From Promethearchaeota archaeon (GTDB lineage Archaea; Asgardarchaeota; Lokiarchaeia; Sigyniarchaeales; SOKP01), in assembly GCA_004524725.1 (NCBI GenBank), contig SDNW01000001.1, positions 2,213 through 66,212 of the forward strand: DNA of 64,000 bases, in the 5' to 3' direction. The notes under the pieces were generated by a model. It was not told the DNA's origin. It was given only the letters and a program-made list of their open reading frames with translations, and searched no databases. The first letter of the stretch is position 1. Every line of letters begins with the position of its first letter. Of the stretch, positions 1-47,487 are shown piece by piece. Both the position numbers and the translations under genes were made by a program.

Positions 1-89
1 ACGTCATTTTTATCTAACCAGTCTATGAGTGCATGGCAACGTGAACAATTTTCCTTAGTGATTATAATAGGGAGTTTAATTTCAGACAT
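1..89 (-). CDS. glutaredoxin/thioredoxin-fold protein, N-terminal fragment (gene runs off the window start)
   Basis: The reverse-strand ATG at 89..87 opens MSEIKLPIIITKENCSRCHALIDWLDKNDV. This is a beta-strand, a CxxC (CSRC) and a helix, as in Grx/NrdH N-termini. It is cut by the window edge and is too short for the ORF track. Confidence 0.4.
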   Translation of the reverse strand, partial: MSEIKLPIIITKENCSRCHALIDWLDKND

Positions 90-212: not shown

Positions 213-1256
213 TTAAACCAACTGCTTAATCAACCATCGTAGAGCATTAATAAGTTTTTCATCTTCATTCAGTACATTGATTGAAAAATATTTAAGGACC
301 ATTCCACATTCTTCTAATTCGTCAATGTCGAAATTTTCATATATAAAATCAGGTCTTACCTCCTCCTTATCGTGAAATTTGTTCCCAATGATCATTATTG
401 GCATATACTCGCCTTTATCTAAGCATCTATTTAATACGAGTTGAAACATATCGATGGTATCTTTAATACTATTTCTATCTGATGCATTAAAAATTAATAT
501 GAAAGCTTCAGAGTTATCAAGGCAATAATCATATAGTCCTTTTTGTGTACCGTCAAAATCATTTTCGATGCACTCATAGGTTAGCAACTCAATATTATCA
601 ATAATAAAATCATATACTTTGTTTGTAAGATTCCTTTTTGCTTCACTATCTTTATAATTTAAAAATTGAATTACTTCTAAATTTTTCAATAAAGTCGTTT
701 TACCGGAATTACGAGGACCAAAGACATATATCTTTTTTAAATCTCCCTTACCAGTAATTGGAGTTGCGATATTAATCTTCGGAGTGATTTTCATATAATA
801 TTTATCAAAAACATCCAAGAAATGCTTTCTAAAAGATTTTGAAGCGAATTTCAACGGGTTTTTCCTATTCGAGGCATCCTCTTGAGAATGTAATAACGCG
901 GTTAACTCCTTATTGGATTTCAATTCAGATGCAAACTCCTGTAATTCACTTGATTTTGATAATAAATAATTATAGATGTCGGTAATTTCATCCCGATAAT
1001 ATGCCGCACGAATCATATACGATATCATCAGTAAATCTTTCCCTCCTCGAGCAATTTCTGAATCGATATAAAAGATATGGTTAATGGTCTGATATTTTCG
1101 ATACGCAAAGATGAAAGTACCCTCTTCCTCTTGGAATTCAAGTATTCTTCCTAAATCCGGGTGCTCATTTTTCACGAGGGGAGTATTACAATAAAATGTG
1201 TTAGGACCTAAGACTGTATCAAAATAACTCAAACAGAGAATTGATTCATCTGGCAT
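213..1256 (-). CDS. Ras-superfamily small GTPase domain (C-terminal) fused to an unassigned ~165-aa N-terminal alpha/beta domain
   Basis: The P-loop is GPRNSGKTT, the switch II-like segment is FDGTQKG, and the G4-like segment is IIGNKFHD. The N-terminal half (MPDESILCLSYFDTVLGPNTFY...) carries no nucleotide-binding motifs. Confidence 0.7.
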   Translation of the reverse strand: MPDESILCLSYFDTVLGPNTFYCNTPLVKNEHPDLGRILEFQEEEGTFIFAYRKYQTINHIFYIDSEIARGGKDLLMISYMIRAAYYRDEITDIYNYLLSKSSELQEFASELKSNKELTALLHSQEDASNRKNPLKFASKSFRKHFLDVFDKYYMKITPKINIATPITGKGDLKKIYVFGPRNSGKTTLLKNLEVIQFLNYKDSEAKRNLTNKVYDFIIDNIELLTYECIENDFDGTQKGLYDYCLDNSEAFILIFNASDRNSIKDTIDMFQLVLNRCLDKGEYMPIMIIGNKFHDKEEVRPDFIYENFDIDELEECGMVLKYFSINVLNEDEKLINALRWLIKQLV

Positions 1257-2084: not shown

Positions 2085-2408
2085 ATGAATGAATTCCCAG
2101 AGTTTATAAAAGAATTATTTGAAGAAGTTGACGGAAAAAACGATAAACAAGACGTTTCAATCTTTACCATTTCTACTTGCCAATGGTGTAAACGCTGTAA
2201 GGCCTACCTTAAAGATAGAGATATCAAGTATAAATATATCGATGTTGACAATATAAGTTTTGAAGAAAAGTCAAAAATATTACAATTTTTACGGGAGAAT
2301 TACAAACCTGATAGAATCGCTTATCCCTTCTTAGTCTGCGATGATAAATTCGTGGTGGGTTACGATCCAAACCAATATGAAGAATTAATGAAATCGGAGG
2401 AGAAATAA
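2085..2408 (+). CDS. glutaredoxin-like protein (CxxC = CQWC)
   Basis: VSIFTISTCQWCKRCKAYLKDRDIKYKYIDVD is a Grx fold signature. A GTGA lies 6 nt before the ATG. The stop is 1 nt from the next gene's ATG, which suggests translational coupling. Confidence 0.7.
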   Translation: MNEFPEFIKELFEEVDGKNDKQDVSIFTISTCQWCKRCKAYLKDRDIKYKYIDVDNISFEEKSKILQFLRENYKPDRIAYPFLVCDDKFVVGYDPNQYEELMKSEEK

Positions 2409-2409
2409 G

Positions 2410-2787
2410 ATGGATATGTCAACAAAAGAAGGAATGAAAGAGTATGTGGAGCGGGTAAGTAAGAAGAATGAATGGATTCTGAATATGGATACCAATACGT
2501 TCAACAACTTAATAGATGGTTTGGTTGAAAATTTCGAGAAATATGGATATCAATCTTGTCCTTGTCGTTTAGCATCAGGTAAAAGAGAATTAGACCGAGA
2601 TTTAATTTGTCCCTGTAATTATGCTCCTTTAGATGTCAAGGAACATGGCGCTTGTTATTGCAACTTATTTATGCGCAATGATTTTTATGAAACAGTTAAA
2701 AAAGATTATGTTATTGTTCCCGAACGCAGACCTATAGAAAAAGAAAATGCAGTTTTAGAATATTTTAATGAAAAAAATAAGGACTGA
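2410..2787 (+). CDS. ferredoxin:thioredoxin reductase catalytic-subunit-like protein (FTR/FDR family)
   Basis: The Cys pattern CPC-x16-CPC-x13-CYC (SCPCRLASGK...LICPCNYAPLDVKEHGACYCNLF) matches the FTR catalytic subunit 4Fe-4S/disulfide motif. It is paired with the upstream Grx-like gene. Confidence 0.8.
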   Translation: MDMSTKEGMKEYVERVSKKNEWILNMDTNTFNNLIDGLVENFEKYGYQSCPCRLASGKRELDRDLICPCNYAPLDVKEHGACYCNLFMRNDFYETVKKDYVIVPERRPIEKENAVLEYFNEKNKD

Positions 2788-2948
2788 ATTTTTAATTTTT
2801 TTTTATAAATCTATTTTTATTTCAATTTTTTATTAATAGTTAAGGATTGGTATCTCAATAATTGTTATGTTTTTTTCAGTTCTAATTTATTTTATATTTT
2901 CTAATAAGCGGTTTTACGGAGAGATTTTTTATTGATTAAAGAGATCAA

Positions 2949-2957
2949 TTTTAAATA
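2949..2957 (+). promoter_or_regulatory. candidate archaeal TATA box upstream of the rhodopsin gene
   Basis: TTTTAAATA lies about 26 nt upstream of the ATG at 2983, and no SD motif lies between them. This is compatible with a leaderless or short-leader transcript. Confidence 0.3.
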
Positions 2958-2982
2958 GTTTTGTATTTAGTTAGTCCATAAT

Positions 2983-3588
2983 ATGGAGGAAATAATTTTT
3001 TACATAGGAGCGGGGGTATTTACCCTCACCAGCATTACATTCTTTCTTTTAAAAAAAAAGAATCTTGAAGTTGCTTCCCTCAACATGATTGTAAATTTCG
3101 TAACTATTGCTTCATATCTTCTCATGGTGAGTGGATTATTTGTGGCTTCTGCGGTAAGTGGCGATTCGATATATTGGACAAGATGGGCATTCTATGCAGT
3201 AAGTTGTTCATTCTTGATGGTCGAAATTTCTATGCTTCTTAGTATAGATAAAAGCATTAAATTGGAAATTATTGTGTTTAACTGCTTGGTCATGATAACA
3301 GGATTGCTTGCCAGTGTATCGGAAGGGATTATTAAATGGCTATTTTTCACGCTGAGTTCTGTAGCTTATCTATATGTACTTTTTCAAATAATCAAACATC
3401 GATCCAATGAAAAATTTATTGTAGCTTTTGTCGCGATCTTTTGGTCTGGATTTCCAATAATTTGGATATTATCACCTGCGGGATTAATGCTAATAGATGC
3501 ATTTTGGACAGCCTTGTTTTACCTAGTACTTGACTTGATTACAAAGGTGTATTTTGGATACCATACAACGTTGAAATTTTCTAAATAA
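2983..3588 (+). CDS. microbial rhodopsin of the schizorhodopsin type (retinal-binding, 7-TM)
   Basis: The 201-aa protein has seven hydrophobic segments. Helix C, YWTRWAFYAVSCSFLMVE, gives R67, F70, S74 and E81 (an FSE triad in place of the bacteriorhodopsin DTD). Helix G, LVLDLITKVYFG, gives D184 and the Schiff-base K188 (AAG at 3544..3546). Confidence 0.85.
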   Translation: MEEIIFYIGAGVFTLTSITFFLLKKKNLEVASLNMIVNFVTIASYLLMVSGLFVASAVSGDSIYWTRWAFYAVSCSFLMVEISMLLSIDKSIKLEIIVFNCLVMITGLLASVSEGIIKWLFFTLSSVAYLYVLFQIIKHRSNEKFIVAFVAIFWSGFPIIWILSPAGLMLIDAFWTALFYLVLDLITKVYFGYHTTLKFSK

Positions 3589-3597
3589 AAATAATTC

Positions 3598-3607
3598 TTT
3601 TTTTTTT
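3598..3607 (+). terminator. oligo-T tract downstream of the rhodopsin gene (candidate archaeal terminator)
   Basis: A T10 run starts 10 nt after the stop codon. Archaeal RNAP terminates at oligo-T tracts. Confidence 0.3.
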
Positions 3608-3764
3608 AATTAATCATCATTAGCTACTATAAGATTAAGTGAGTTTCCATTCCCATATTCTTGTACAGATGTTTTATTTAAAAATTATGTTGAATCTTCT
3701 TCAGTAAGACATCTTTATAGAATATAAACTATACAGATAAATATCGCTTTTCAATACTACTTAT

Positions 3765-3923
3765 ATGCCAGATAATGAAATGACTGAAGAGGAGTTAGAA
3801 GAGGAGTTAGAAAAGGCTATTAAAGATAATGAACCGAAAAGAGATAATTGTGGCACTCCAATTCCAACCAATCGAGAAGTCGGCATACAAAGAACTGATG
3901 TTAAAATAAAAAAGGATCAATAA
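3765..3923 (+). CDS. hypothetical small acidic protein (52 aa)
   Basis: The ATG-initiated ORF reads MPDNEMTEEELEEELEKAIKDNEPKRDNCGTPIPTNREVGIQRTDVKIKKDQ in an otherwise empty 450-bp gap. It has no recognisable domain. Confidence 0.2.
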   Translation: MPDNEMTEEELEEELEKAIKDNEPKRDNCGTPIPTNREVGIQRTDVKIKKDQ

Positions 3924-4034
3924 TAATTTTTTTTATATTTTATTTTCAATTTATTATCGTTACTATTCTAACTTTTATAGGTGGTTTAAATAAAGCAGCG
4001 AATAGAAGGAAGAAAAAACTATCCTACAGATGAA

Positions 4035-4973
4035 GTGGATCCTAAGAATTTTCTCAGTGATGATGAAGTAAAAGCCTTAATTGAAAAAAAGGACGAGTTT
4101 GTTTTTCAGCAAGATGATTATTTTAAACTTTATAATTGTGTGCATTGTGGTGAATGTGATACTGAGATCGAACGGATGGAGTTAAAAGAAAAGTTTCTAA
4201 ATGATGGAAATACTTTTGAGGATCATAAAGCAATGGTAGAATGTTTTGAAAAATATCGTTCCCCTTATCCCACTAATGAAATGCGCATTAAAAAACCAGA
4301 TGGAATTCCAAAAGAATCTGATACACTTTTCTTTATGGGTTGCCTTTCAACAATCAGAATTCCAAGATATACTGAACACGCATTGCAATATCTTTTAAAA
4401 GAAAATATCGATTTCACAATTCTTGATAAGGAAATATGCTGTGGCTGGCATCTAATTTCCTCAGGTTTAACTAAGGAATTTAATGTATGCAGACGAGAAA
4501 ATATTGAAATTTTTAAAAGATATAAAAAGATCATTTGCTTATGCCCGGCGTGCTATTTCTTGTTTAACAAATATTATAAAATAAAGATGAAAACCAGCAT
4601 TCAAATTGACTATATCAGTGATTATTTGAAACCTTCAAAAACAAAAAAAGAAGGGTCTGTTGCTATTCAACACTTATGTCAAATTAAGAACCGCGGAAGA
4701 GAGGGTGTTGATAGATTTGTAGAAAAGCTGTTGGAAAAGAGTGGATATTATGTAAAAAGCGTTCCCCACTGGTGTTGTGGAGGAGGAACTGGTTGGTTGA
4801 ATCGAACGGATGTTATTGAGGCAATTGCGAGAAAAAGGATGGGAGATTTCGATAATGCGGGAAGTGATTATGTAACAACTTATTGCCCATCTTGTTGGTG
4901 GATTTTATATAGATTTGGTAAGAAATGCAAGATAAAACCAGAAATTCGGGATCTATTTGAACTACTTCTTTAA
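4035..4973 (+). CDS. CCG-domain Fe-S oxidoreductase (HdrD/GlpC/LutA-like), copy 1
   Basis: There is a ferredoxin-like CVHCGEC motif and two cysteine-rich CCG-type motifs (EICCGW and HWCCGGGTG, plus CPACY and CPSCW). It is a paralog of the next gene. The reading frame is open back to 3990, where an ATA follows AGGTGG (see findings). Confidence 0.7.
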   Translation: MDPKNFLSDDEVKALIEKKDEFVFQQDDYFKLYNCVHCGECDTEIERMELKEKFLNDGNTFEDHKAMVECFEKYRSPYPTNEMRIKKPDGIPKESDTLFFMGCLSTIRIPRYTEHALQYLLKENIDFTILDKEICCGWHLISSGLTKEFNVCRRENIEIFKRYKKIICLCPACYFLFNKYYKIKMKTSIQIDYISDYLKPSKTKKEGSVAIQHLCQIKNRGREGVDRFVEKLLEKSGYYVKSVPHWCCGGGTGWLNRTDVIEAIARKRMGDFDNAGSDYVTTYCPSCWWILYRFGKKCKIKPEIRDLFELLL

Positions 4974-4983
4974 ATTTTAACCT

Positions 4984-5979
4984 ATGAGCGAAGATTATAA
5001 ATGTCCTTGTAAAGAGATCGACCCTGAAAATTTTCTATCAAATGAAGAGGTTCTTGAGTTATTATCTAAAAAAGATATTAATTTTAAAGAACAAGACTAT
5101 TATAAGATTTTCAATTGTATTCACTGTAACGCATGTGGCACTTCTGAGGAAAGATTTCTATTAAAAGAGAAATTTCTTAAACATGGATATAAGATCAAAG
5201 GTTTAAATCAAATCTTATCCAATTTTGAGAAATTTAAGAGTCCTTTTATTCATAATAAAAGTCGAGTTAAACTCATTGAGGGTATTCCTTCAGAAAGTAA
5301 TACTTTACTTTATCTAGGGTGTTTTACTACTGTCAAGACACCAAAATATGCCGAAAATATAATTAGATATTTATTAAAAGAAAAGGTTGATTTTTGTCTC
5401 TTAGAGGATGAGATTTGTTGTGGATATCCTATCCTATGCATGGGTAAAATGAGTGTATATAATAAATTTGTAAAAGAGAATCTGCAATTATTTAAATCTA
5501 AAGGATTTAAAAGAATCATTACTGTATGCCCTAGTTGCTATATGGTATTTAAAAAACATTATAGCGAACATGGAATCAAGGTGAATTACTTTACCGATTA
5601 TTTAAAACCTGCAGATCCTAAAAAAAAAGGAAATCTTATTATTCAACATGCATGTCCATTAAAGAATGGAGAAATTCCTGGAATTGCCGATGATCTAGAA
5701 CAATTGTATCGTGAAAGCGGTTATAATGTATTGGATGAAGTTCCAAGAGATTGTTGCGGATTTGGTGTCGGTCATCAATTAAGAGTGGATATATCTGAAG
5801 CTATTGCGATGAGGAGAATGAAAGATTTTACTGAGGAGAGTGGATATATTCAAAACTTAAAAGGTGTAGATAATTTTATTACAAGTTATTGTCCAGATGC
5901 TTTCTGGGTCTTGAGAGCTTATGGTCGAAAACAAAAAATCCCTTTCAAAGTTAAAGATATGTGCGATCTATTAATGTAA
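4984..5979 (+). CDS. CCG-domain Fe-S oxidoreductase (HdrD/GlpC/LutA-like), copy 2
   Basis: It has CIHCNAC, EICCGY, DCCGFGVG, CPSCY and CPDAFW, and is collinear with copy 1 along its full length (tandem duplication). Confidence 0.75.
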   Translation: MSEDYKCPCKEIDPENFLSNEEVLELLSKKDINFKEQDYYKIFNCIHCNACGTSEERFLLKEKFLKHGYKIKGLNQILSNFEKFKSPFIHNKSRVKLIEGIPSESNTLLYLGCFTTVKTPKYAENIIRYLLKEKVDFCLLEDEICCGYPILCMGKMSVYNKFVKENLQLFKSKGFKRIITVCPSCYMVFKKHYSEHGIKVNYFTDYLKPADPKKKGNLIIQHACPLKNGEIPGIADDLEQLYRESGYNVLDEVPRDCCGFGVGHQLRVDISEAIAMRRMKDFTEESGYIQNLKGVDNFITSYCPDAFWVLRAYGRKQKIPFKVKDMCDLLM

Positions 5980-6129
5980 TTCCAAATTTGTCATTTGAAA
6001 ATCTATTTTTTAAAATTAATTATGATATAATCAAGGTTTTACTATTATTTTTATAATTTAAACGAATAAATATTTTAAAAGTTCCTAGTCATATTGAAAT
6101 TAGATTAACCAGATTTGGGTGTTATTATA

Positions 6130-6822
6130 ATGTTATTTTCGAAAAATGAATTAAATAATGTTAAAAGAGAAATGAGTAAGCTAAAAAACAAAGTAGTCCT
6201 TAAACTGTTCACAGATTTCAAAACCCAAGAAGACGGTTCTAAGTTAAGAATGTGTATGTCCTGTGAAGGTACATATGAATTACTAAGATCATTAGAGGAA
6301 TTGTCAAATGGCAAATTATTTATCGAGGAATTATCAATAGAAGAAAATCTTGATGAGACAAAAAAGTATGATATTAAGAGGATTCCTGCAATTCTTTTTG
6401 TGGATGATGAAGGAAGAGAAATAATACGATACTCTGCTTATCCCACAGGATCGGAACTAGTCCCATTTTTAAATAGCATACAATATTTTTCTGGCATAAG
6501 ACCTTTTTATGCTGATCAGATACTTACACACTTGAAAAAAATAGGGAAGTCAAGCATGAAAATATTTATTACTCCTACGTGTCCCTATTGTCCAGCAACA
6601 GTCCCTGTTCTAACATTATTTGCAATAGTATCAAAGGGTAAAATATCAGCTGAAGTTATTGATGTTAATTTAAATCCGGATATCGCCATGAAGTATCAAG
6701 TCCAAGGCGTACCTCATACCATTATAAACGAAAAAGATCACATATACGGAATGTTCTCTCCACAAGATTTATTAGATAAACTTACGAAAGGAGAGAGAGA
6801 TTTTGGGGGAATGTATGCTTAA
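6130..6822 (+). CDS. protein disulfide oxidoreductase (two-thioredoxin-fold PDO, Pyrococcus/Sulfolobus type), copy 1
   Basis: The N-unit CxxC is CMSC and the C-unit is CPYCP. The length and the two-unit layout match archaeal PDO. ATG 6130 is preferred over the track's TTG 6115 because GGGTG lies 8 nt upstream and the N-terminus then aligns with copy 2. Confidence 0.75.
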   Translation: MLFSKNELNNVKREMSKLKNKVVLKLFTDFKTQEDGSKLRMCMSCEGTYELLRSLEELSNGKLFIEELSIEENLDETKKYDIKRIPAILFVDDEGREIIRYSAYPTGSELVPFLNSIQYFSGIRPFYADQILTHLKKIGKSSMKIFITPTCPYCPATVPVLTLFAIVSKGKISAEVIDVNLNPDIAMKYQVQGVPHTIINEKDHIYGMFSPQDLLDKLTKGERDFGGMYA

Positions 6823-6843
6823 TTTTTTGAGGTGATTTGATAG

Positions 6844-7527
6844 ATGTCCCAAGATGAGAAATATCGAGAAATAATTAAGAAAGAAATGACTAAGTTGACC
6901 AAACCTGTAAAGTTAAAAGTGTTTACCTCTCAGAGTGCAAAGCCAGACGGTACAAAAATACGCGCATGTATGGATTGTGAGCAGTTTATGTCATTATTGA
7001 GAATCTATGAAGAGAATTCTAACGGTTTATTAACTATAGAAGAACTCTCTATAGATGAAAATCCGGATTTTGCAAAAAAATATGATATACAGAGAGTTCC
7101 AACGATATTATTTATTGATAAAAATGGAAATGAACTTATCCGATATCTAGCTGCACCTCAAGGGGGAGAAATTCAACCCTTTATTCAAGCTCTTTTTACT
7201 TTTGCAGGCGCTCCTAACTATTATGAAGCGGCTATAAAACAGAATATAAGTAGAATATCCCCAGCCACTATTAAGGTTATGATTACAAACTCATGTCCAT
7301 ACTGTCCTCAAGTAGTATCTATCAGTAATCAATTTGCTCTAGCAGCCGAGGGAAAAATTCGAACAATCATTATTGATATTTTAACAAATCCGGATATTGG
7401 TCAATATTATGACGCTGCTGGAGTCCCTTATACCATCATAAACGATAAAAAGACATTAGCCGGTATGGTTGGTCCAAATGAGATAATAAGAGAACTTATT
7501 GGGAGCAACATCCGTATGCAATACTAA
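6844..7527 (+). CDS. protein disulfide oxidoreductase (PDO), copy 2
   Basis: The N-unit is CMDC and the C-unit is CPYCP. GAGGTGA lies 8 nt upstream of the ATG. It is collinear with copies 1 and 3. Confidence 0.75.
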   Translation: MSQDEKYREIIKKEMTKLTKPVKLKVFTSQSAKPDGTKIRACMDCEQFMSLLRIYEENSNGLLTIEELSIDENPDFAKKYDIQRVPTILFIDKNGNELIRYLAAPQGGEIQPFIQALFTFAGAPNYYEAAIKQNISRISPATIKVMITNSCPYCPQVVSISNQFALAAEGKIRTIIIDILTNPDIGQYYDAAGVPYTIINDKKTLAGMVGPNEIIRELIGSNIRMQY

Positions 7528-7544
7528 TTTATAAGTCTATTTAA

Positions 7545-8198
7545 GTGAAAGTGAGATCAGTGCCCGTTTCTTATATTATTGAAAAAATGATTAAGCAAGA
7601 ATTGGCGAAACTCAAGCAACCTGTTACGATAAAATTGTTTATTGATGAGAGTAAAGAATTAGAAACCAAAAAAACCTTATCAATTCTTAAAAGTTATAAA
7701 GAAAATTCGAATAATAAGTTAAATTTAGATATAATAACTTTAGGTAAAGGTACAGATCTTATAGAAAGATATCAAATTGAGAGATTTCCGACTATTTTAC
7801 TTATTGATGCTGAAGGAAATGAATGTATTCGATACCTAGCAGCGCCTCAAGGAAGTGAAGTGAAACCTTTTATTCAATCACTTCAAGTTTTATCTGGTAG
7901 AAAAAATTATTATGAAGAAACACTAAAAACAAATTTGGATAATACTAAGACTTCAACAATTAAAGTGATGGTCACAAAGTCATGTGCTTACTGTCCAGAA
8001 TTGGTCAATATGGTATCGCAGTTTGCATTGGGATCGTCCGGTAAAGTTAAGGCGGAAATAATTGATATCTTAGAAAATCCTGACATTGGTGATCACTATA
8101 ATATTGAAACTGTTCCTTATATTGTAATTAACAATGGAGAGCCATTAATAGGATTAATTAGCCCAAATGAATTATTGGAAAAAATTTTAAAAGTTTGA
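7545..8198 (+). CDS. protein disulfide oxidoreductase (PDO) paralog, copy 3, N-terminal CxxC lost
   Basis: The C-unit CAYCP is retained. The position equivalent to CMSC/CMDC reads KKTLSILKSY, with no Cys. The start codon (GTG 7545) is uncertain. Confidence 0.7.
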   Translation: MKVRSVPVSYIIEKMIKQELAKLKQPVTIKLFIDESKELETKKTLSILKSYKENSNNKLNLDIITLGKGTDLIERYQIERFPTILLIDAEGNECIRYLAAPQGSEVKPFIQSLQVLSGRKNYYEETLKTNLDNTKTSTIKVMVTKSCAYCPELVNMVSQFALGSSGKVKAEIIDILENPDIGDHYNIETVPYIVINNGEPLIGLISPNELLEKILKV

Positions 8199-8218: not shown

Positions 8219-9163
8219 ATGTTTAACATTGATATGGAAGGTATTGATTTAGAAAAGATATATGATCTTATAGTATTAGGAGGAGGTCCGACCGCAATTG
8301 GATGTGCAATATATGCTAAGCGTTTTGCCATGGAGGTTTTGATAGTTGGAAAAACCTTTGGGGGATTAATCGCTACAACCCATATAGTAGAAAATTACCC
8401 CGCTATATCTTCGATTAGTGGGCAAGGTCTAATGGAGTTGTTTAAGGAACATATGAATTCCTTAGAAATTCCATATATTTCAGATGAGATAAAAAACATT
8501 GAAAAAGTTAACGACCACTTTGAATTACACTCCTTTTTTCAAAATTTCAAAGCTTACTCGGTATGTATTGCAACAGGATCAGTAAGAAGAAAGTTAGGAA
8601 TTCCAGGAGAAGAAGAGTTTGCGGGGAAAGGAGTATCATATTGTGCAACCTGTGATGGTCCATTTTATAAGGATAAAGTTGTATGTGTTATAGGAGGTAG
8701 TGATTCTGCTGCAAAAGAGGCTTTATTTCTAGCACAAAACACAAAAAAGGTGTATATCATATATCGAGGCGAGGATTTACGAGCTGAACCAATAAATAAA
8801 AAACGAGTGCTCGAAAGTGATAAAATCGAGATTATCTATAACACAAATGTAGTTGAGATTATCGGAGAGGGGAAAGTAAAATCAATTGTTTTCGATAATG
8901 GAAAAAGATTAGATATTGATGGCGTTTTTATTGAAATTGGGTCAGTTCCTAACTCAGATATTGCAAAGCACATCGGAGTTGATATTAACGATCATAATGA
9001 AATTAAGATTAATCGTAAATCTGAAACGAATATTCCAGGCATTTTTGCTGCAGGAGATGTAGCTGATGCTCCCTTCAAGCAGGCTATTACAGGTGTAGCA
9101 GAAGGTGTAATTGCAGCTTATTCTGCTTTTGATTATGTAAAAGAAATGAATATTGAATACTAG
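8219..9163 (+). CDS. trxB: thioredoxin reductase (low-Mr, FAD/NAD(P)H)
   Basis: It has the FAD motif LVLGGGPTAIG, the redox-active CATCDG, the NAD(P)H motif VIGGSDSAAKEA and the C-terminal GIFAAGDV. Confidence 0.85.
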   Translation: MFNIDMEGIDLEKIYDLIVLGGGPTAIGCAIYAKRFAMEVLIVGKTFGGLIATTHIVENYPAISSISGQGLMELFKEHMNSLEIPYISDEIKNIEKVNDHFELHSFFQNFKAYSVCIATGSVRRKLGIPGEEEFAGKGVSYCATCDGPFYKDKVVCVIGGSDSAAKEALFLAQNTKKVYIIYRGEDLRAEPINKKRVLESDKIEIIYNTNVVEIIGEGKVKSIVFDNGKRLDIDGVFIEIGSVPNSDIAKHIGVDINDHNEIKINRKSETNIPGIFAAGDVADAPFKQAITGVAEGVIAAYSAFDYVKEMNIEY

Positions 9164-10475: not shown

Positions 10476-10718
10476 TTGATTAATGCGATGAAAAAACAAC
10501 ATCATATTGAAAGTTATAAATTTCATCATATTGATACGGATAAATGTAAAAAATGTACTCATTTTTTTTGCGAGGACGCTTGTTTTAGAGGAATTTATCA
10601 AGTTATTAACAAAGATACTGAACCAAAATGCTCAATTGTACAGAAACGCGAAGACAGATGTGTAAAATGTCATATTTGTACAACAGCATGTAAGTTTAAA
10701 GCTATTACTATTGATTGA
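10476..10718 (+). CDS. small 2x[4Fe-4S]-type ferredoxin-like protein
   Basis: There are two Cys clusters, CKKCTHFFCEDAC and CVKCHICTTAC. The start may be the second ATG, at 10485. Confidence 0.6.
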   Translation: MINAMKKQHHIESYKFHHIDTDKCKKCTHFFCEDACFRGIYQVINKDTEPKCSIVQKREDRCVKCHICTTACKFKAITID

Positions 10719-10867: not shown

Positions 10868-11425
10868 ATGATCTCTCAAAAATTAAAATTAGACGATATT
10901 GATCGGAAAATTATTAGCTTAGTCCAAGAGGATCCCAATCTTACCCATACACAAATCGCAGAAAGAATAGACAGAAGCCAACCGACAGTGGGTATGCGAA
11001 TTAAGAAATTAGAAAAGGAAGGTATTCTTCAATTTCAACCAGGAATTAATTTTAAAAAAGTAGATCTATTTTTGGCTACTGTAGAATTAAAAACAAAATA
11101 TCCGGATGAAATTATCGATATGGCAAAATTTTGTCCATTTATGTTAAATGCGTTCCGCTTAAGTGGTGACCATAACATCAGCATCCTTCTTGCCAGTTCA
11201 AAACTAGAGAAACTAGATAACATTGTCAATTATCATTTTAGAAATAATCCTAGTGTTCAATCTGTTTCAATGGAAATTGTCACGCAAATTGCAAAAGATT
11301 TTATTCTTCCTATTGATTTTGATTCCGAAGAGCATAATCCCACATTAGAAGAGGGATGCGGAGAAAACTGTAAATATAAGTTGGGAGCATTACATGAAAA
11401 AGTTGAGCAATCCCATTTCATGTAA
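10868..11425 (+). CDS. Lrp/AsnC-type winged-HTH regulator with C-terminal Cys motif
   Basis: LDDIDRKIISLVQEDPNLTHTQIAERIDRSQPTVGMRIKKLEKEGIL is an HTH_AsnC signature. The C-terminal part has CGENC. Confidence 0.7.
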   Translation: MISQKLKLDDIDRKIISLVQEDPNLTHTQIAERIDRSQPTVGMRIKKLEKEGILQFQPGINFKKVDLFLATVELKTKYPDEIIDMAKFCPFMLNAFRLSGDHNISILLASSKLEKLDNIVNYHFRNNPSVQSVSMEIVTQIAKDFILPIDFDSEEHNPTLEEGCGENCKYKLGALHEKVEQSHFM

Positions 11426-11452
11426 TTAACACATATTAAAAAATATTGAGGA

Positions 11453-12022
11453 CTATTCTTCCTCTTCTATTTCATCAAATTGATATTTTGGAAGATTTAC
11501 GTTAAGATCGCAATCAGGTCCACAATTGGTAGAGTGCAAATCAAATTTTTCTATTTGAAAATCAATCGGGACGACAAAATCGTGAATGGAATCAATAATA
11601 ATATTCGTTTTAACATTGGTAACTTGTGGATCTTTTCTGAAACAAATATCTACTAACTTCTCAATAGTTTGAAGATCTGAGGCTGCGATAAAGCATAACA
11701 AGTTGAATTCACCAGAAATTTTAAAAGCGTGATTAACAAAAGCACATTTTTCGAGTTTATTCACTATACTATCAACATCCTTCGTAGAAATAAATACAAT
11801 CGCTGTTTTGATATCAACTTTTTTTATATTAAATCCCACTTGTTTAGTTAATAAATGTTTCCGTTCCAATTTTATTATTCGAGCACCCACAGCTGGTTGA
11901 GACTTTTCAATCTCAGCTGCAATCTGACTATGAGTAATATCTGGGTCTCGCTCAATCATTTCGATTATTTTATAATCGTCATCATCTATTCCTAGAATTT
12001 CCTTAAATGTTTTCTTTATCAT
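11453..12022 (-). CDS. Lrp/AsnC-type winged-HTH regulator paralog
   Basis: DDDYKIIEMIERDPDITHSQIAAEIEKSQPAVGARIIKLERKHLL is followed by a C-terminal CGPDC. It is collinear with the 10868 gene and convergent with it across a 27-bp gap. Confidence 0.7.
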   Translation of the reverse strand: MIKKTFKEILGIDDDDYKIIEMIERDPDITHSQIAAEIEKSQPAVGARIIKLERKHLLTKQVGFNIKKVDIKTAIVFISTKDVDSIVNKLEKCAFVNHAFKISGEFNLLCFIAASDLQTIEKLVDICFRKDPQVTNVKTNIIIDSIHDFVVPIDFQIEKFDLHSTNCGPDCDLNVNLPKYQFDEIEEEE

Positions 12023-12211: not shown

Positions 12212-13204
12212 TTAAAGAAGGTTCACGAAACTTGTGAACAACTCAAGAAAGAAAATCACTATAGTATATCCGACAAATCCTAGTATAAAATAAATCGGTT
12301 TTCCTTTTTCTTTTTCGGGTATTACTTCGCGCACAATTGTATAAAGAATAACTCCGGAAATGAAAGAATAAATAACATAAAAGAGCTCTATATCAAAAGG
12401 ATTAAAGGGGAATATGAGTTCGAGGATTAGTTTAACGAGAATACCTAGTATTGCTGCACTTGAGAGGATATACTTTTTCATCTTGTTGTCACCAATATTT
12501 AGGTTCTCGTAAATTTCAAGATCTGTAAAAATTATATGACTCTCAGACCTATTACTTATGATCGCTCTAGACCAAGCAAATATAAAAAAGAGAATTCCAG
12601 ATATGAATTCAATTGAAAGTAAACCTGCAAGTATTATTCCAATAAGAAAATGATAAGTGAAATTCGTAAAAAAACGCAATTGTGACAAATCTTCACTGAC
12701 ATGGTTCTGAATTTTTATCTTATAACGATTAATTTCTTCTAATATTTCCTCTTCTTGCAGATTTAGGCTGGTAATGGTTTGAGCTATGTCTCTCACTGCT
12801 GATTCGTCCAAGCTTTCTTTGGTCAGTTCTTTTGTAAGAATTCTTTCTATTCCCCTCTCTACTTCCTCTAAAGTCTTCTCTTTTTGAAGTAATTTGCGCA
12901 TTCTTTTTTGGGAGTTTGCCTCAACTTTCTGTAAAATTAATTTTTCGGAGACATGCACAAAAGAAAATCCAATTACTACAAAAAGATATTCAAAAATTAC
13001 AATTTCGAAAGGAATTACGGGAATTCCGACGGCGACTTCCGGAAGCAGTACAAGAAAGAAATATGCTAATGAAATTCCCGCAATAAGAGAAATATGGAGC
13101 TTAGGATGGGTATGCTCATAAAAATCTGCAACGAAAAAAAAGATACCTAAAACTAAAGACACTATCGCTACAATTAAAAAATTCTCTATCATTATTATTC
13201 TCAA
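12212..13204 (-). CDS. polytopic membrane protein, possibly a ZIP-like metal transporter, with a central charged coiled-coil loop
   Basis: There are multiple TM segments. LLPEV and REVIPEKE motifs at the two hydrophobic halves resemble ZIP/ZupT signatures. The functional call is weak. Confidence 0.4.
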   Translation of the reverse strand: MRIIMIENFLIVAIVSLVLGIFFFVADFYEHTHPKLHISLIAGISLAYFFLVLLPEVAVGIPVIPFEIVIFEYLFVVIGFSFVHVSEKLILQKVEANSQKRMRKLLQKEKTLEEVERGIERILTKELTKESLDESAVRDIAQTITSLNLQEEEILEEINRYKIKIQNHVSEDLSQLRFFTNFTYHFLIGIILAGLLSIEFISGILFFIFAWSRAIISNRSESHIIFTDLEIYENLNIGDNKMKKYILSSAAILGILVKLILELIFPFNPFDIELFYVIYSFISGVILYTIVREVIPEKEKGKPIYFILGFVGYTIVIFFLELFTSFVNLL

Positions 13205-15280: not shown

Positions 15281-15670
15281 TTGAAATTAGAACATATTGC
15301 TCTTGCTTCAAATTCAGAAGTAGAAAGTGATAAATTTTTCATGGATTTATTTGGGTTGGAAAAAATAAGATCTTTTACGGTATCGGATGATAAGATGAGG
15401 CAATTTTTTAATGTTAGCGAAGCGCATAATTTCATTCGTTATGAAAAGAATGAATTGTCCGTTGAGGTTATAATTACCAGTACAGCTGATAAAGTCAAGG
15501 ATAAATTCACTCACACTTGTATCATTGTGGAGGATGGTGTTAAGCTTATAGAAAAGGCAAAGGCTATGGGATATGATACTATTAAAGTCCCGAGAGATGA
15601 GAAAAAAGGGTTTTATTTATTTTTAAAAGATCCTTTTGGGAACCTATTTGAAATTAAAGGGATATCGTAA
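15281..15670 (+). CDS. VOC (glyoxalase/bleomycin-resistance/methylmalonyl-CoA-epimerase-like) family protein
   Basis: MKLEHIALASN...H(T)CIIVED...DPFGNLFEI is the paired beta-alpha-beta-beta-beta VOC pattern. The start is TTG, 7 nt after AGGTGA. Confidence 0.7.
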   Translation: MKLEHIALASNSEVESDKFFMDLFGLEKIRSFTVSDDKMRQFFNVSEAHNFIRYEKNELSVEVIITSTADKVKDKFTHTCIIVEDGVKLIEKAKAMGYDTIKVPRDEKKGFYLFLKDPFGNLFEIKGIS

Positions 15671-16529
15671 AATTTTTTTACAAAAAATTCTTTTTTATAA
15701 ATTTGAATCTGCAATAATTATCATTGAATCTGAATGGAGTGAATTAATCATTCCTAAATCTTACAAACTTAAAGTGGTATTAGGCGGGGCTCAAAATTCC
15801 GGGAAAACTTCGTTTATAGACGGGGATACTTTAAATGACAGCCCTATTGGAGTATCATTTAAACCAATAGAATGTTATGCTAATGGCTTAGATAACTATA
15901 AATTTATTATTTGGGATCTAAAAGATCGAGAGCGATTTCGTTTTTTATTCCCATATTTTTGCCGTGGAGCTTGTGCTGGTTTATTGTGTTTTGATTTGAC
16001 CAACCGAGATTCTTTTTTAGAACTAGAAAGTTGGATCAGGCTATTTAGAGATAATATTGGTGACATCCCTATAATTTTAATAGGAACAAGATATGATTTA
16101 GATAGCTTTAAGGTAACCGAAAAAGAGATTCGCGATTTTGTTAGAACAAATGGATTAAGCGATTTTTTTTTAAGTTCTGTATATGACGATATTGACACAA
16201 AAAAAGAAGTTTTTAAATTAATAGTTGAATCTATTGATCCAAATTATCCACTTAATAATTTTTCTCTTTTTACTCCTAAAGATTTTGATTCTGATGAGTT
16301 TAAAGAATTTGTCAGATATTTTTCGATTTGCCCAATATGTAAAAAAGAAAATCATTATGAATCTTTAAAGAGTATTTATATTAGCAATGAACCAGAATTA
16401 ATATTACTTCGACAACAGATATATAAGGCGATAGATTTCTCTCGAAATTTTAAATTAAATAAAAAAAGGAACTTGAAAGTCGGAATCCCTTGCTGTAATT
16501 GCTATAAAATCCTTTTTAAAAATAAGTAG
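15636..16529 (+). CDS. divergent Rab/Ras-like small GTPase with C-terminal 4-Cys zinc-ribbon extension
   Basis: G1 is GGAQNSGKTS. G3 is degenerate (WDLKDRERF versus WDTAGQE). G4 is GTRYD (versus NKxD). The C-terminal Cys pairs are CPICKK and CCNCYK. The track start at 15636 overlaps the previous gene. ATT 15750, 7 nt after GGAGTGA, would give a canonical GTPase N-terminus (see findings). Confidence 0.65.
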   Translation: MGTYLKLKGYRKIFLQKILFYKFESAIIIIESEWSELIIPKSYKLKVVLGGAQNSGKTSFIDGDTLNDSPIGVSFKPIECYANGLDNYKFIIWDLKDRERFRFLFPYFCRGACAGLLCFDLTNRDSFLELESWIRLFRDNIGDIPIILIGTRYDLDSFKVTEKEIRDFVRTNGLSDFFLSSVYDDIDTKKEVFKLIVESIDPNYPLNNFSLFTPKDFDSDEFKEFVRYFSICPICKKENHYESLKSIYISNEPELILLRQQIYKAIDFSRNFKLNKKRNLKVGIPCCNCYKILFKNK

Positions 16530-22068: not shown

Positions 22069-23205
22069 TCAACGTAAATTACTATTTGGGAAATCGGTAT
22101 TATCTACTGCAGCACGGACATATGGTGAGATTGGTCCTCTTCCCAATGCCATAATCCGTATTTTTGAACCAAGAGAAGGGTTTAAAGCTGTTCCAAATTT
22201 TAATGATGCTTGTTTGGGAATTTCATTAGATATTGTAGAAATGATTTTATCCATCTTTGATAACGATAATTTGTGATCTCCTGAAACGGATACAATACAC
22301 TTATCGATTTTATTAGGATCAGGATCTAAAAGCGGGTTATTTAAGGCTAGATGCGCTTTACTGATTAAATCTTTCTCCTCACCTAATGATTCTGTTATGC
22401 CAATTAGCCCACTCGGATATAACCCAGATTTTTCAAGTACTTTTCTCACATCAGCGTAATCAATATTTATTAAACCACAATTGTTAATTAAATTCAAAAT
22501 TTCTTTTATGCTCCTAATTAACACTTCATCCATTATTTTAAATCCGGATAAAATTGGCAATTTTTCATTAAATTTTAATAAATTATCATTAGGAATGGGG
22601 ATTAATGTGTCGGTATTTTTCACGAGTTCCTTTAACCCCCTTTGAGCTCGTGATCTTCTCTCATTACCTTCTGAAGAAAAAGGTATCGAACAAAACGTAA
22701 CTACCGTTGCGTTATTCTTTTTTGCTTCTCTTGCAATAATGGGGGCTGCTCCCGTTCCAGTTCCTCCACCTAACCCGTATGTTAAAAATACAACATCAGC
22801 ATTCAAAGCCTCGGCTAATCTTTCAGCATCCTCTTCTGCTGCCGTTGCCCCAATTTCAGGATCATTACCTGAACCTAGTCCATTACAAGTTTCCTTCCCA
22901 ATTAATAATTTTTTAGTGGCATTGGAATAATAAAGGTCGTGAGCATCAGTATTAATATTGAGAGTTTCTACACAGTCTGTTTGAAATTCTTGCATTCTTG
23001 ATACTGTATTATTACCCGCTCCTCCAATTCCAACGACTATAGATTTAATTTTGAGGACTTTCAATAAATCAGATAAATATTTATCGCTATCTAAATTTGC
23101 ATTTTGATTATCTATTTTATTTTGACGTGCAATTTCATTAAATCTTGATCGTACCGATAATCGCGAATTTACCACTTTATTTAGATCAAATTCATCGTTT
23201 GTCAT
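22069..23205 (-). CDS. ftsZ: cell-division GTPase FtsZ
   Basis: It has GIGGAGNNTVSRM (G-box 1), the tubulin signature GLGGGTGTGAAPIIA and the T7-loop region NDNLL. Confidence 0.85.
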   Translation of the reverse strand: MTNDEFDLNKVVNSRLSVRSRFNEIARQNKIDNQNANLDSDKYLSDLLKVLKIKSIVVGIGGAGNNTVSRMQEFQTDCVETLNINTDAHDLYYSNATKKLLIGKETCNGLGSGNDPEIGATAAEEDAERLAEALNADVVFLTYGLGGGTGTGAAPIIAREAKKNNATVVTFCSIPFSSEGNERRSRAQRGLKELVKNTDTLIPIPNDNLLKFNEKLPILSGFKIMDEVLIRSIKEILNLINNCGLINIDYADVRKVLEKSGLYPSGLIGITESLGEEKDLISKAHLALNNPLLDPDPNKIDKCIVSVSGDHKLSLSKMDKIISTISNEIPKQASLKFGTALNPSLGSKIRIMALGRGPISPYVRAAVDNTDFPNSNLR

Positions 23206-28508: not shown

Positions 28509-28928
28509 ATGAATTTTGATGAGGATGAAGATTTGGATGAAGAATTCGAGGAAGATTTTGATGAGGAGTTAGATGAAGATTTGGATGATGAGTTTGAGGA
28601 ATTAAAAAAACCACCTTCCGATGATCTTACAACCAAAACTCCTAAAACTGCAATAACTCCTGAAGCTAAAAAAATATCCGTATATTTGATGTCAACTATA
28701 GGCCCGGGGGAAAAGAAGCAAAAATTATTAATGTATACAGGATACAAGATTAGGGATATCAAGGAGACGGTGGCAAATATCTTCGGTTTAGATCCCGCTG
28801 ATTTTCATTTGTCTACAGGAGGAGTTACTATGGAGGAAGGATTCACGCTGAATGATTATAATGTTGAAGACGGAGATGATATTTTATTAATTCCTGCTAG
28901 CACAGCAGGCATAGTTAGCATATTATAA
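28509..28928 (+). CDS. ubiquitin-like (beta-grasp) modifier precursor with poly-acidic N-terminal extension (UBL1)
   Basis: The C-terminal ~85 aa, KKISVYLMSTIGPGEKKQKLL...DGDDILLIPASTAG-IVSIL, is a paralog of UBL2. The N-terminal ~55 aa is rich in D/E/L/F. Confidence 0.75.
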   Translation: MNFDEDEDLDEEFEEDFDEELDEDLDDEFEELKKPPSDDLTTKTPKTAITPEAKKISVYLMSTIGPGEKKQKLLMYTGYKIRDIKETVANIFGLDPADFHLSTGGVTMEEGFTLNDYNVEDGDDILLIPASTAGIVSIL

Positions 28929-28961
28929 TTAGCAAAGACTCTTCCATATAAAATTAAGATA

Positions 28962-29741
28962 TTATTTTTTATTTCGTGGAATTAAAGCAATTTCATCATC
29001 ATCATCAATATTATAGTCCCTTACTAGGGAATCTTCACGTAATAATATTCCGCCAGTGGAGAGTAAAAAATCATCAAGATCATATCCAAAAAATATTGAT
29101 ATTTTTTCTTTTAGCTCTTTAATGAATTCTGAAGATTCAATTATTAAAATTTTAGTTTTCTCTCCAGGCTCCACTAAGGATCTCACATAGACGCGTATTT
29201 TATCTTGCATTCCAATTTTCATTTGAGGAGGATAATATACAACCTTTTCATCATTCTCTGCTTCCAACATGGATTCAATTAAATCTTTCCTTTCCTCGGC
29301 ATTATAATATAATAATTCTCTGAGAAAAAATATCTTATCCATTTTAGATAAATTTAACAGTTCTATCCTATCTAACTCTTCTGGATTGAATAATGAGAAA
29401 ATAAACTCATGAAGTTTTGGAATTTCTTCATATGAATCATCTGAAGTAGCATAATTATCAATTATAGGCATTGCTTCGAAATAATCATTTATAAAAGCGC
29501 CATAGTTTCCCTTAAACGTTCTTTTTTTAAAAGGGACTTTCTTCTTTAAAATTAGCTCATCAGGTTTTTTAGTTTCTATGATCGTATAGAGAGTAAAACT
29601 AGGTACAGCAATTACGCTACTAATAATAAGGATCGATTTTAGAAGGATATTATCAATTTTAAAGAATATAAAAATAAGATAGAGAAGAATAAAAAAAAGA
29701 TATAATATGGCTGTTCCAAATAATAAATATTTGTTTTTCAT
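28962..29741 (-). CDS. membrane-anchored protein (2 N-terminal TM helices) with C-terminal ubiquitin-like domain lacking a terminal Gly (UBL3)
   Basis: The C-terminus, DKIRVYVRSLVEPGEKTKILII...FGYDLDDFLLSTGGILL...DDDDEIALIPRNKK, aligns residue-for-residue with UBL1 and UBL2 but ends RNKK. The N-terminal hydrophobic helices are YLLFGTAILYLFFILLYLIFIFF and ILIISSVIAVPSFTLYTII. Confidence 0.7.
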   Translation of the reverse strand: MKNKYLLFGTAILYLFFILLYLIFIFFKIDNILLKSILIISSVIAVPSFTLYTIIETKKPDELILKKKVPFKKRTFKGNYGAFINDYFEAMPIIDNYATSDDSYEEIPKLHEFIFSLFNPEELDRIELLNLSKMDKIFFLRELLYYNAEERKDLIESMLEAENDEKVVYYPPQMKIGMQDKIRVYVRSLVEPGEKTKILIIESSEFIKELKEKISIFFGYDLDDFLLSTGGILLREDSLVRDYNIDDDDEIALIPRNKK

Positions 29742-29823
29742 AATTTTAATAATGCCTTCTTCTAAATTTTAAATGTTAAATTCATAATTTAAATTCCATT
29801 GGAATAAATTTGCAAATTCTCTT

Positions 29824-30495
29824 CTATTCCTCATTTATAAAATTTCTAACCTCAAAAAATTTATCTTCGTTTAAGCTAAATAATAGTTTTTTATTTTGCT
29901 TTTTTACGTTAATTAGTTTTAAACTTTGTAAAATCTTAAGATACTTTTTTATAGTATTATAATTTTTTTTCAACCTATTTGCAATTTCGGTTATTTTAAA
30001 GTCTTTTTTTTCCTCCAGCATGAAATTTATTATTTCTTTAATGAAATTCTGTCTTAAGTAGAAATAAAGTTCATCAAATTCTGGATTTAAATCAGAATTA
30101 AAGAACACCCTTTGATTATCAAATTTTCTAGATCGGACAAATTGAAATTTTTCTAAACAAGATAGATGCCATAGAGCCTGATTACTTCCAATGTCTATGG
30201 CGTTCATAATTTCATTAATGTTTGATGGAGTTTGCTTAATTAAATTAAAAATTTCATTTCTTACTGGATGTTCGATTATATTATTTTTCATTAATTTAGT
30301 CCCAGGTATAAGGATTCTTCTTTTGATAAGTTTTTTTATTATTTTTTCGATCTTATTTTTATTTATATCTGGGTTTAACTTTACTCTATTATTAATGAAC
30401 ACTACAATATCCTCTATTGAGAAGAAAGGTTTCTTTTTTAAGTATTCTTCAATTAATTCAAAAACAATATATTCAGCATTATTAGGAGAATTCAT
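29824..30495 (-). CDS. winged-HTH (ArsR-like) transcriptional regulator, probably two wHTH units
   Basis: RNEIFNLIKQTPSNINEIMNAIDIGSNQALWHLSCLEKFQFVRSRK is ArsR-like. A second similar unit is ITEIANRLKKNYNTIKKYLKILQSLKLI. Confidence 0.6.
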   Translation of the reverse strand: MNSPNNAEYIVFELIEEYLKKKPFFSIEDIVVFINNRVKLNPDINKNKIEKIIKKLIKRRILIPGTKLMKNNIIEHPVRNEIFNLIKQTPSNINEIMNAIDIGSNQALWHLSCLEKFQFVRSRKFDNQRVFFNSDLNPEFDELYFYLRQNFIKEIINFMLEEKKDFKITEIANRLKKNYNTIKKYLKILQSLKLINVKKQNKKLLFSLNEDKFFEVRNFINEE

Positions 30496-30747
30496 AAGAG
30501 TATACTTCTATGAGATTGAATGAAATTAACTTGTTAATCATTTCTTTAGTCTTAAATGATATCTCTCAATTAATATTATTTACTAACGATTTATTCAATT
30601 TATAAGTATATTTTCTAAAATTAATAAGGACATTATTATCTTAATTTATGAAATTTCAAAATTATGCCAATTGGTTTTATAATATCATTTTAGCATGTTT
30701 TTAGTAAGTTTAAAAATAAACTATTAAAAAAAAAGGAAGTGAATTAA

Positions 30748-31083
30748 ATGAGTTTTGAAAATGATTTTGATGAGGAATTAGAACCTTTAAAGTCTAAAAC
30801 GCCTACAAGTAAAACGCCTTCGGCAGGAAAGAAATTGACTCTATACTTTATGTCAACTATAGGTCCCGGTGAAAAGAAAGAAAAGTTAACTGTAAATGAC
30901 GCAAATCAAGTCAGTGATATAAAACAAACATTAGGAAACCTATATGGACTTGATCCTAATGAATTTCATTTATCTTCTGGTGGAGTTACCATGGAAGAAA
31001 ATAATCAATTAAAAGATTATAATGTAAACGATGGAGACGACATTCTATTGATTCCTGCGAGTACAGCGGGTAGACTTATATAA
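30748..31083 (+). CDS. ubiquitin-like (beta-grasp) modifier precursor (UBL2)
   Basis: KKLTLYFMSTIGPGEKKEKLTV...LYGLDPNEFHLSSGGVTMEE...DGDDILLIPASTAG-RLI. It is the first gene of the co-directional UBL-E1-E2-JAMM-RING run. GGAAGTGA lies 5 nt before the ATG. Confidence 0.8.
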   Translation: MSFENDFDEELEPLKSKTPTSKTPSAGKKLTLYFMSTIGPGEKKEKLTVNDANQVSDIKQTLGNLYGLDPNEFHLSSGGVTMEENNQLKDYNVNDGDDILLIPASTAGRLI

Positions 31084-31148
31084 TTTTCTATATAATTTAT
31101 AATTAGAAGGCACATGTCCTTCATTTATTTTTTTTATTAATAATTAAG

Positions 31149-32381: not shown

Positions 32382-32463
32382 ATTTATTATCAAAATAATT
32401 ATTTACAATAATTTTCTTGTTAAAAACTATAAAAATTAAAATAAAAAAAGGGATTAAGAAAAA

Positions 32464-32991: not shown

Positions 32992-32997
32992 AATATT

Positions 32998-35939: not shown

Positions 35940-36077
35940 TAAGTATCACGAACTTATATTAATTTTCCTATTTAATAAAAGTAGATATCTAATATAAAAA
36001 ATATTAATGACTAAGTTTGTTCTATTAAAGTTTAGAATTTAATTTATAAAACTATCATGCTTGTCTGATTTAGAAAA

Positions 36078-38987: not shown

Positions 38988-38993
38988 AGAAAA

Positions 38994-40118: not shown

Positions 40119-40132
40119 TTATAAAATTCTAA

Positions 40133-42007: not shown

Positions 42008-42125
42008 CCAAAAGCATTACTTAATTTAAAATATCTATTAACTATTATGAGTAGCTTGAATATAAAATTGATTAGTAACTATATAAGAAATCTATTAAAA
42101 ATTAAATTGATTTGAATAATTAATT

Positions 42126-44030: not shown

Positions 44031-44032
44031 GA

Positions 44033-46703: not shown

Positions 46704-46861
46704 TATTTCTTCTATACTTATTAGTTTATAATTATTGCTAAAGAAATTTAATCGACTTTTAGTTCATAGTGATTAAATATTAATAATCTAAAAAACTCCT
46801 TTCCAAAAATTCTAAAATTGAAATAAATTAAGCTATAATTAAACAAAGAAAGGTGTAAAAA

Positions 46862-47392: not shown

Positions 47393-47487
47393 AAAATCCA
47401 ACTATTTTTTTTATTTATTTTTACAATATTTTTAATTAACTAAGAAGAATATATTTAATTAATTCATTTTTTAAGCTGCAATTATCA

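Follow-up and report, generated by a model that had tools for sequence, protein, structure and literature searches.

The 64-kb stretch of DNA analysed here (the window) carries, near its start, a gene for a retinal protein of the schizorhodopsin (SzR) type, set among genes for thiol-redox proteins. This arrangement raises two questions, namely, which rhodopsin is encoded at this locus and whether its redox surroundings tell anything about its function.

Identity of the rhodopsin encoded at 2983-3588

An open reading frame starting with ATG extends over positions 2983..3588 of the plus strand and, in the ORF listing of the window, corresponds to 201 amino acids plus a stop codon. The product matches the Pfam family Bac_rhodopsin (PF01036) over residues 2-192, with E=6.2e-21 and a score of 75.3 vs a gathering score of 24.6. 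An AlphaFold2 model, for which a 14-sequence alignment served as input, has a pLDDT of 86.9 and shows seven helices (residues 2-25, 28-50, 65-85, 90-112, 115-138, 144-163 and 173-198); Foldseek returned 7e4g as its top match (TM 0.96, rmsd 0.9 Å). By direct count, the key residues are R67, F70, S74, C75, L78, E81, N100, V103, D184 and K188, where residue 67 begins the helix C stretch RWAFYAVSCSFLMVE and residue 184 the stretch DLITK. All ten are invariant in an alignment of 14 SzRs that are 61-86% identical to the window protein. Since the pocket and transport residues are invariant at such a limited overall identity, purifying selection for function is indicated. The observation of this ORF is confirmed, far beyond chance.

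An exact-sequence look-up showed that the window protein equals GenBank TFG18381.1, with all 201 residues identical. This entry, 'MAG: hypothetical protein EU531_00040' of a Lokiarchaeota/Promethearchaeota archaeon, is encoded on an 84,359-bp contig. Among the genes synthesised by Inoue et al. (2020, Sci Adv, PMC7148096), their Methods section names 'TFG18381 (SzR1)', a protein also designated SzR AM_5S_00009. All residues named there for SzR1, that is E2, E3, W68, S74, S76, E81, W154, P158, W161, D184 and F191, are present in the window protein. Its identity to SzR4 is 71.9%, and that published for SzR1 and SzR4 is 71% (PMC7704677). Furthermore, the same protein with identical neighbours was found on a Logan contig of run SRR7615342. 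The window gene is the founding characterised schizorhodopsin, SzR1 itself; it is already known and not new. Nothing that would contradict this identity or the biochemical function was found here.

These data bear directly on the initial annotation, which had assigned the gene to the known schizorhodopsin family. The assignment stands, in the strict sense of sequence identity to SzR1. The described protein of 201 residues with seven transmembrane helices and R67, F70, S74, C75, E81, D184 and K188 agrees with the direct count, the Pfam match and the AlphaFold2 model, and the residue positions that it gave for characterised schizorhodopsins appear as the same list, verbatim, in PMC8040798. The proposed Asp counter-ion, four residues before the Schiff-base Lys in DLITK, corresponds to D184 and K188, both counted in the sequence and both invariant in the 14 SzRs. 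In helix C, Phe, Ser and Glu had been placed at bacteriorhodopsin (BR) positions D85, T89 and D96. Indeed, the published equivalences are F70=D85, E81=D96, D184=D212, R67=R82 and C75=position 90 (PMC8040798, PMC7148096), and S74 corresponds to T89 because the alignment of helix C is gap-free. The running text of PMC7148096 names the helix-C motif of SzR1 'FTE'; the motif 'FSE' of the initial annotation is correct, given Ser74 in the sequence and the alignment text of PMC7148096.

The placement within the rhodopsins is equally clear. A sequence search of the PDB gave SzR4 (7e4g) with E=2.6e-89 over the full length, Antarctic rhodopsin (AntR) with 1e-31 and type-1 rhodopsins with 1e-14 or weaker, and no heliorhodopsin was present among the best 60 PDB sequence matches, nor among the best fold matches. 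The 80 database relatives listed are all Asgard-type proteins of 200-209 aa, some of them named schizorhodopsin. The closest sequence relatives are SzRs, well apart from type-1 rhodopsins and heliorhodopsins, as the initial annotation had expected. The features typical of SzRs were all found in the window protein: the seven-helix fold, K188 with the single Asp D184, F70, and S74, C75 and E81 in helix C. Retinal binding and inward H+ pumping were reported for the identical sequence (PMC7148096). Two other families were considered and rejected. Xenorhodopsins (XeR) carry an Asp in place of BR D85 and a Pro in place of BR D212 (PMC8040798), where the window protein has F70 and D184. As for heliorhodopsins, the counter-ion position of helix C is occupied by Phe instead of Glu, and the C-terminus of SzR1 is cytoplasmic (PMC7148096), so that there is no inverted topology.

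Published activity and transport mechanism of SzR1 and its relatives

In E. coli supplied with retinal, SzR1 gives coloured cells and the external pH rises in the light, while SzRs in ND7/23 cells produce an inward current at every voltage from -80 to +100 mV (PMC7148096). Six of six pigment-forming SzRs caused large pH changes, exceeding those of PoXeR; the photocurrents of SzR1 were small (20-60 pA), which the authors blame on poor expression (PMC7148096). The purified protein has a λmax of 557 nm and is a trimer according to CD and high-speed AFM (PMC7148096). These published transport assays were carried out in E. coli and mammalian cells with retinal supplied. The reading of the gene as an inward H+ pump, offered in the initial annotation, is borne out by such assays of an identical sequence. 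The E. coli expression, absorption and light-driven pH measurements that it proposed have likewise been published for this protein (PMC7148096), since the protein is identical to SzR1. The rhodopsin itself is of little consequence here, its spectrum, oligomeric state, orientation, photocycle, transport direction and key mutants having all been reported.

According to the work on SzR1 and SzR4, K188 carries all-trans retinal as a protonated Schiff base and D184 is held at a low pKa. Green-yellow light (λmax 557 nm) drives transfer of the Schiff-base proton to the cytoplasm during M formation, and upon M decay the Schiff base takes up a proton straight from the extracellular side; the net outcome is inward H+ pumping by the trimer. 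Outward transfer is impossible, as F70 stands in place of the extracellular proton acceptor of outward pumps. In the SzR4 structure, D184 serves as the only counter-ion and forms salt bridges with the Schiff base and R67, and F70 points away, towards the membrane (PMC8040798). [quoted passage not shown] In SzR1, E81Q abolishes all transport and D184N yields no pigment (PMC7148096); in SzR4, transport is lost with S74A, C75A/S/T and E81Q (PMC8040798). In other published SzR mutants, strong impairment results from R67A or R67Q; F70A is tolerated, and neither F70D nor F70E reverses the pump direction. The window protein retains N34, L78, L85, T195, N100 and V103 and has Val at position 30.

At the protein level, the window gene product shows no difference from SzR1 (PMC7148096). 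SzR4 (TFG21677.1, PDB 7e4g; Higuchi et al. 2021, PNAS, PMC8040798) aligns with it gap-free over 199 residues at 72% identity and shares R67, F70, S74, C75, L78, E81, L85, N34, T195, N100, V103, T176, D184 and K188; the two proteins differ by 56 substitutions, including A168L and L30V, where L30 is one of the two residues shielding E81 in SzR4. AntR and the bacterial schizorhodopsins (PDB 9or2; E=1e-31, 37% identity) belong to the same SzR superfamily, with F, C, E, D and K at equal positions. AntR, however, represents a distinct bacterial subgroup, in which E81 is dispensable for transport (PMC8040798). The xenorhodopsins PoXeR and NsXeR are likewise light-driven inward H+ pumps, trimeric and with an M-dominated photocycle, but they are only ~16% identical to the window protein. 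Moreover, the proton is caught by a cytoplasmic Asp in XeR and leaves SzR untrapped (PMC8040798). The likeness of SzR and XeR is convergence, not common family membership.

The thiol-redox island and the position of SzR1 within it

The setting described in the initial annotation, inside a thiol-redox island, is readily recognised from Pfam matches on both sides of SzR1. Upstream lie a glutaredoxin gene (Grx; 2085-2408, plus strand, Glutaredoxin) and a gene for a ferredoxin-thioredoxin reductase catalytic-subunit-like protein (FTR-B; 2410-2787, plus strand, FeThRed_B). Downstream, all on the plus strand, follow two CCG-domain Fe-S proteins (4035-4973 and 4984-5979), three tandem Thioredoxin_3 or protein-disulfide-oxidoreductase-like (PDO) genes (6115-8198) and a thioredoxin reductase (TrxR; 8219-9163, Pyr_redox_2). 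An Arf-family-like GTPase with a long N-terminal extension (213-1256, minus strand) is the first gene of the redox island in ~14 loci. The start of the window (6-89, minus strand) falls inside the tail of a second glutaredoxin gene (98 aa). In two syntenic relatives (L002, 742-5207; L008, 2812-7320), the island runs further upstream with an FMN reductase, an HTH_10 (bacterio-opsin-activator-like) regulator, a 4Fe-4S protein and a hybrid-cluster protein (Prismane), which makes the region a wider oxidative- or nitrosative-stress island. The third Thioredoxin_3 paralogue finds only a 64% match in L008 vs 89-92% for the first two, and in SzR-less island loci the corresponding position matches PDO2 at 46-60% or is absent; judging from these identities, this copy is fast-evolving or lineage-specific.

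To compare contexts, we used the neighbourhoods of SzR homologues together with 11 SzR loci from species-representative genomes, all of Promethearchaeota, and the 18 proteins neighbouring SzR in the window as tblastn queries. The island was present only where SzR is at least 86% identical (L002/L003 and L008). Its genes are 64-97% identical in these loci, which amounts to plain vertical synteny. In 12 loci with SzR 62-72% identical, none of the 18 queries detected an island gene within 8-10 kb; these represent 10 independent loci, as L004 and L016 are on the same contig and L005 and L006 on near-identical contigs. No neighbour family is common to more than 4 of the 15 SzR loci.

The reverse comparison started from the CCG protein adjoining SzR, with which metagenomes were queried for islands; the 34 loci retained extend 2.5 kb or more beyond the 5' side of the first CCG gene (CCG1). 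Upstream island genes (HEAT, Grx, FTR-B) are carried by 26 of the 34, and the longer loci continue with CCG-CCG-PDO-PDO-TrxR, some of them to HSP20-SfsA-Fer4-HTH-AsnC, at 42-89% identity. SzR was found in one locus only (L019, SzR 84%). About 25 related metagenomic loci have the island Arf-HEAT-Grx-FTRB-smallORF-CCG-CCG-PDO-TrxR but no SzR. The order with SzR in the island is kept in at least four lineages (window, L002/L003, L008 and L019), where SzR is 84-100% identical.

The gap between FTR-B and CCG1 (2788-4034 in the window) was compared with that of L022, L028, L036, L037, L043, L050, L065-L067, L071 and L078. It measures ~400-500 bp in five lineages. In six other lineages and in L002/L003, it holds a minus-strand gene pair of ~350 and ~368 aa, for which no Pfam matches are on record in the L002/L003 copies, and in L066/L067 it holds other genes. 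With a content that differs by lineage (small ORF only, SzR, gene pair or other genes), the gap is a variable insertion spot.

The DNA flanking SzR1 suggests an autonomous unit. In an upstream alignment of three lineages (window, L002 and L008), the ~57 nt before the ATG (2926..2982, plus strand) are nearly invariant, and the distal intergenic DNA has diverged. Within this block, 26-34 nt ahead of the ATG, lies a TATA-like box, TTTTAAATA (2949-2957). Read in the light of general features of archaeal promoters, the block suggests that SzR has its own promoter and probably a leaderless or very short-leader mRNA. Downstream, a run of ten T read from the sequence (3598..3607, plus strand) begins 10 nt past the stop codon. 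It is a plausible oligo-T terminator of archaeal type, weakened by the fact that its position is not conserved in L002 or L008. A search around SzR for target-site duplications or mobile-element ends returned only a recurring T-rich terminator-like motif, which follows FTR-B (2812-2833) and again the small ORF (3936-3957), so that SzR alone is not bracketed. The GC content of SzR (0.342) is no outlier to the gene mean (0.316 ± 0.029), and there is thus no sign of recent transfer in the form of foreign base composition. A scan for sigma-70 promoters and hairpin terminators gave fewer sites than shuffled controls, the method being inapplicable to an archaeon.

Another gene of the gap deserves mention. 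An unannotated, conserved 52-aa ORF, MPDNEMTEEELEEELEKAIKDNEPKRDNCGTPIPTNREVGIQRTDVKIKKDQ, is located at 3765..3923 of the plus strand. Its N-terminal half is acidic, its single Cys, in D-x-C-G, is invariant, and an EVG-QRT motif is likewise conserved; a Pfam scan of a 47-aa version gave no match. By tblastn it was matched in 52 fetched loci and is intact in 49 of them, in 44 distinct versions, where both locus counts include repeat copies of some contigs. Its position, between the FTR-B-like gene and CCG1, is constant, and a promoter-like block (CTTTATAGAATATAA...) on its 5' side is likewise conserved. A role as partner of SzR was rejected, as the ORF is found in more than 40 loci without SzR. 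The ORF belongs to the ancestral set of island genes, unlinked to SzR, and its product may be a small redox partner protein.

Taken together, the comparisons argue for the following arrangement. In one Lokiarchaeal lineage, SzR was inserted into a widely conserved thiol-redox island, where it stands between FTR-B and the small ORF as a unit of one gene whose promoter-proximal block is conserved and its own. Across the SzR family, it has no conserved partner gene, and it would not be an operon member. An operon with the redox genes is argued against by synteny (26/34 loci have the upstream island and 1/34 SzR; 0/12 distant SzR loci have an island gene) and by the conserved promoter block. We consider it almost certain that the gene is SzR1 of a Lokiarchaeal MAG, with its published inward-pump mechanism, and that it stands in the redox island as a stand-alone, lineage-specific insertion. 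The gene-neighbourhood comparison given here does not appear in the SzR papers cited. The initial annotation had seen a point of interest in the redox-island context; this interest is not sustained, the island being widespread without SzR and SzR occurring elsewhere in unrelated contexts. Since the island usually lacks SzR and SzR lacks conserved neighbours, the context is no functional clue. The useful outcome is in this respect negative: the redox-island setting should not be taken as a pointer to SzR function.

On the other hand, SzR1 and its thiol-redox neighbours could act jointly, with proton import driven by light, or else a light signal, aiding disulfide reduction or a photo-oxidative-stress response within a co-regulated island. 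SzR does lie between the FTR-B and CCG genes in four close lineages, the island of syntenic relatives includes the hybrid-cluster protein, FMN reductase, second glutaredoxin and HTH_10 regulator upstream, and Bulzu et al. too noted HTH_10-type regulators near Lokiarchaeal SzRs. Furthermore, the physiological role of SzR is still called 'elusive' in a 2025 preprint, and a lineage-specific insertion alone leaves room for a regulatory link that arose after the insertion. Such coupling is nevertheless very unlikely in view of the ~25 related islands without SzR, many of them with a gap of only 400-500 bp, of the unrelated genes that fill the same gap in other lineages, and of the distant SzR loci, none of which has an island gene nearby. 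The promoter-proximal block that SzR has for itself and the two opposite-strand genes that stand between SzR and the CCG genes in L002/L003 point in the same direction. We give equally little credit to the more specific proposal that SzR1 was recruited in this lineage into an oxidative-stress/thiol-redox regulon comprising the hybrid-cluster protein, FMN reductase, HTH_10 Bat-like regulator, Grx, FTR-B, CCG proteins, PDOs and TrxR, with proton import or light sensing as part of a photo-oxidative-stress response. If this were true, inward proton pumps would gain their first physiological role.

Still less likely is a native role mainly as photosensor, in which the inward proton current would be a by-product of heterologous assays. 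Inward pumping dissipates the proton-motive force without obvious energetic benefit, the SzR1 photocurrents are small, and regulators do occur nearby, HTH_5/HTH_24 and AsnC-type at 10868-12022 and HTH_10 upstream in relatives. However, no transducer or signalling-domain gene adjoins SzR in any of the 15 loci compared. The magnitude of the pH changes in all six pigment-forming SzRs and the inward direction of the current from -80 to +100 mV (PMC7148096) also speak against a by-product, and the photocycle and the dependence on E81 match a transport cycle.

Retinal supply and further genes of the window

No Pfam match to carotenoid or retinal families (SQS_PSY, Amino_oxidase/CrtI, Lycopene_cycl, BCD/Blh, RPE65) was obtained among 63 ORFs of the 64-kb window. 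They were drawn from the 64 ORFs called at 70 aa or longer, to which one of 47 aa was added. An 80-aa Fer4 ORF (10476-10718) is represented by a 76-aa gene call in L001, a 90-aa ORF (51249-51521) was scanned 3 nt out of frame, and one short ORF was thus effectively outside the Pfam scan. Two hydrophobic ORFs without Pfam match, at 12212-13204 (330 aa) and 60576-61322 (248 aa), are not Blh-like on inspection. UbiA, PcrB and geranylgeranyl reductase (GGR) genes at 57.4-60.5 kb were considered as retinal genes and rejected as ether-lipid genes. The initial annotation had drawn attention to the lack of crt and carotenoid-cleavage genes. At the sensitivity of Pfam this holds true for the window, but it loses its weight as a point of interest, since the 64 kb cover little of the genome and an absence here says nothing about the rest. 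A literature search found no report of a retinal pathway or supply in Lokiarchaeia.

That the gene yields an apoprotein, non-functional in vivo in a host unable to make retinal, is the least likely reading: it would accord with the families missing from the window and with the lack of such a report, but the window is small, opsin genes are often unlinked to retinal genes (PMC12779958), even rhodopsin-bearing prokaryotes in which no known retinal genes occur are able to form functional pigments (PMC7734400), and the retinal-pocket and transport residues are invariant in SzRs of 61-86% identity.

Several other regions of the window merit a brief description. A eukaryote-like ubiquitin system cluster, typical of Asgard archaea, occupies 28509-33804 and comprises three ubiquitin-like genes (28509-28928, 28962-29741 and 30748-31083), an E1 ThiF gene (31149-32381), an E2 UQ_con gene (32464-32991) and a JAB/MPN deubiquitinase gene (32998-33804). 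A Ras/Roc-type small GTPase is encoded at 15636-16529 (plus strand) and an FtsZ/tubulin homologue at 22069-23205 (minus strand). Positions 34980-49645 hold a pterin or methanopterin-type cofactor cluster, with genes for a FolE2-type GTP cyclohydrolase, an amidohydrolase, two radical-SAM proteins (CofH/MqnC-like), Pterin_bind+DUF4346, DUF1464, DUF447, an archaeal dihydroneopterin aldolase and a GHMP kinase. Finally, a PadR-family regulator gene (50753-51274) adjoins one at 49720-50760 whose product spans the membrane several times and has a HAAS domain at its N-terminus, and another HAAS membrane protein is encoded at 54612-55832; by their domain content, these PadR and HAAS genes look like sensor and regulator modules.
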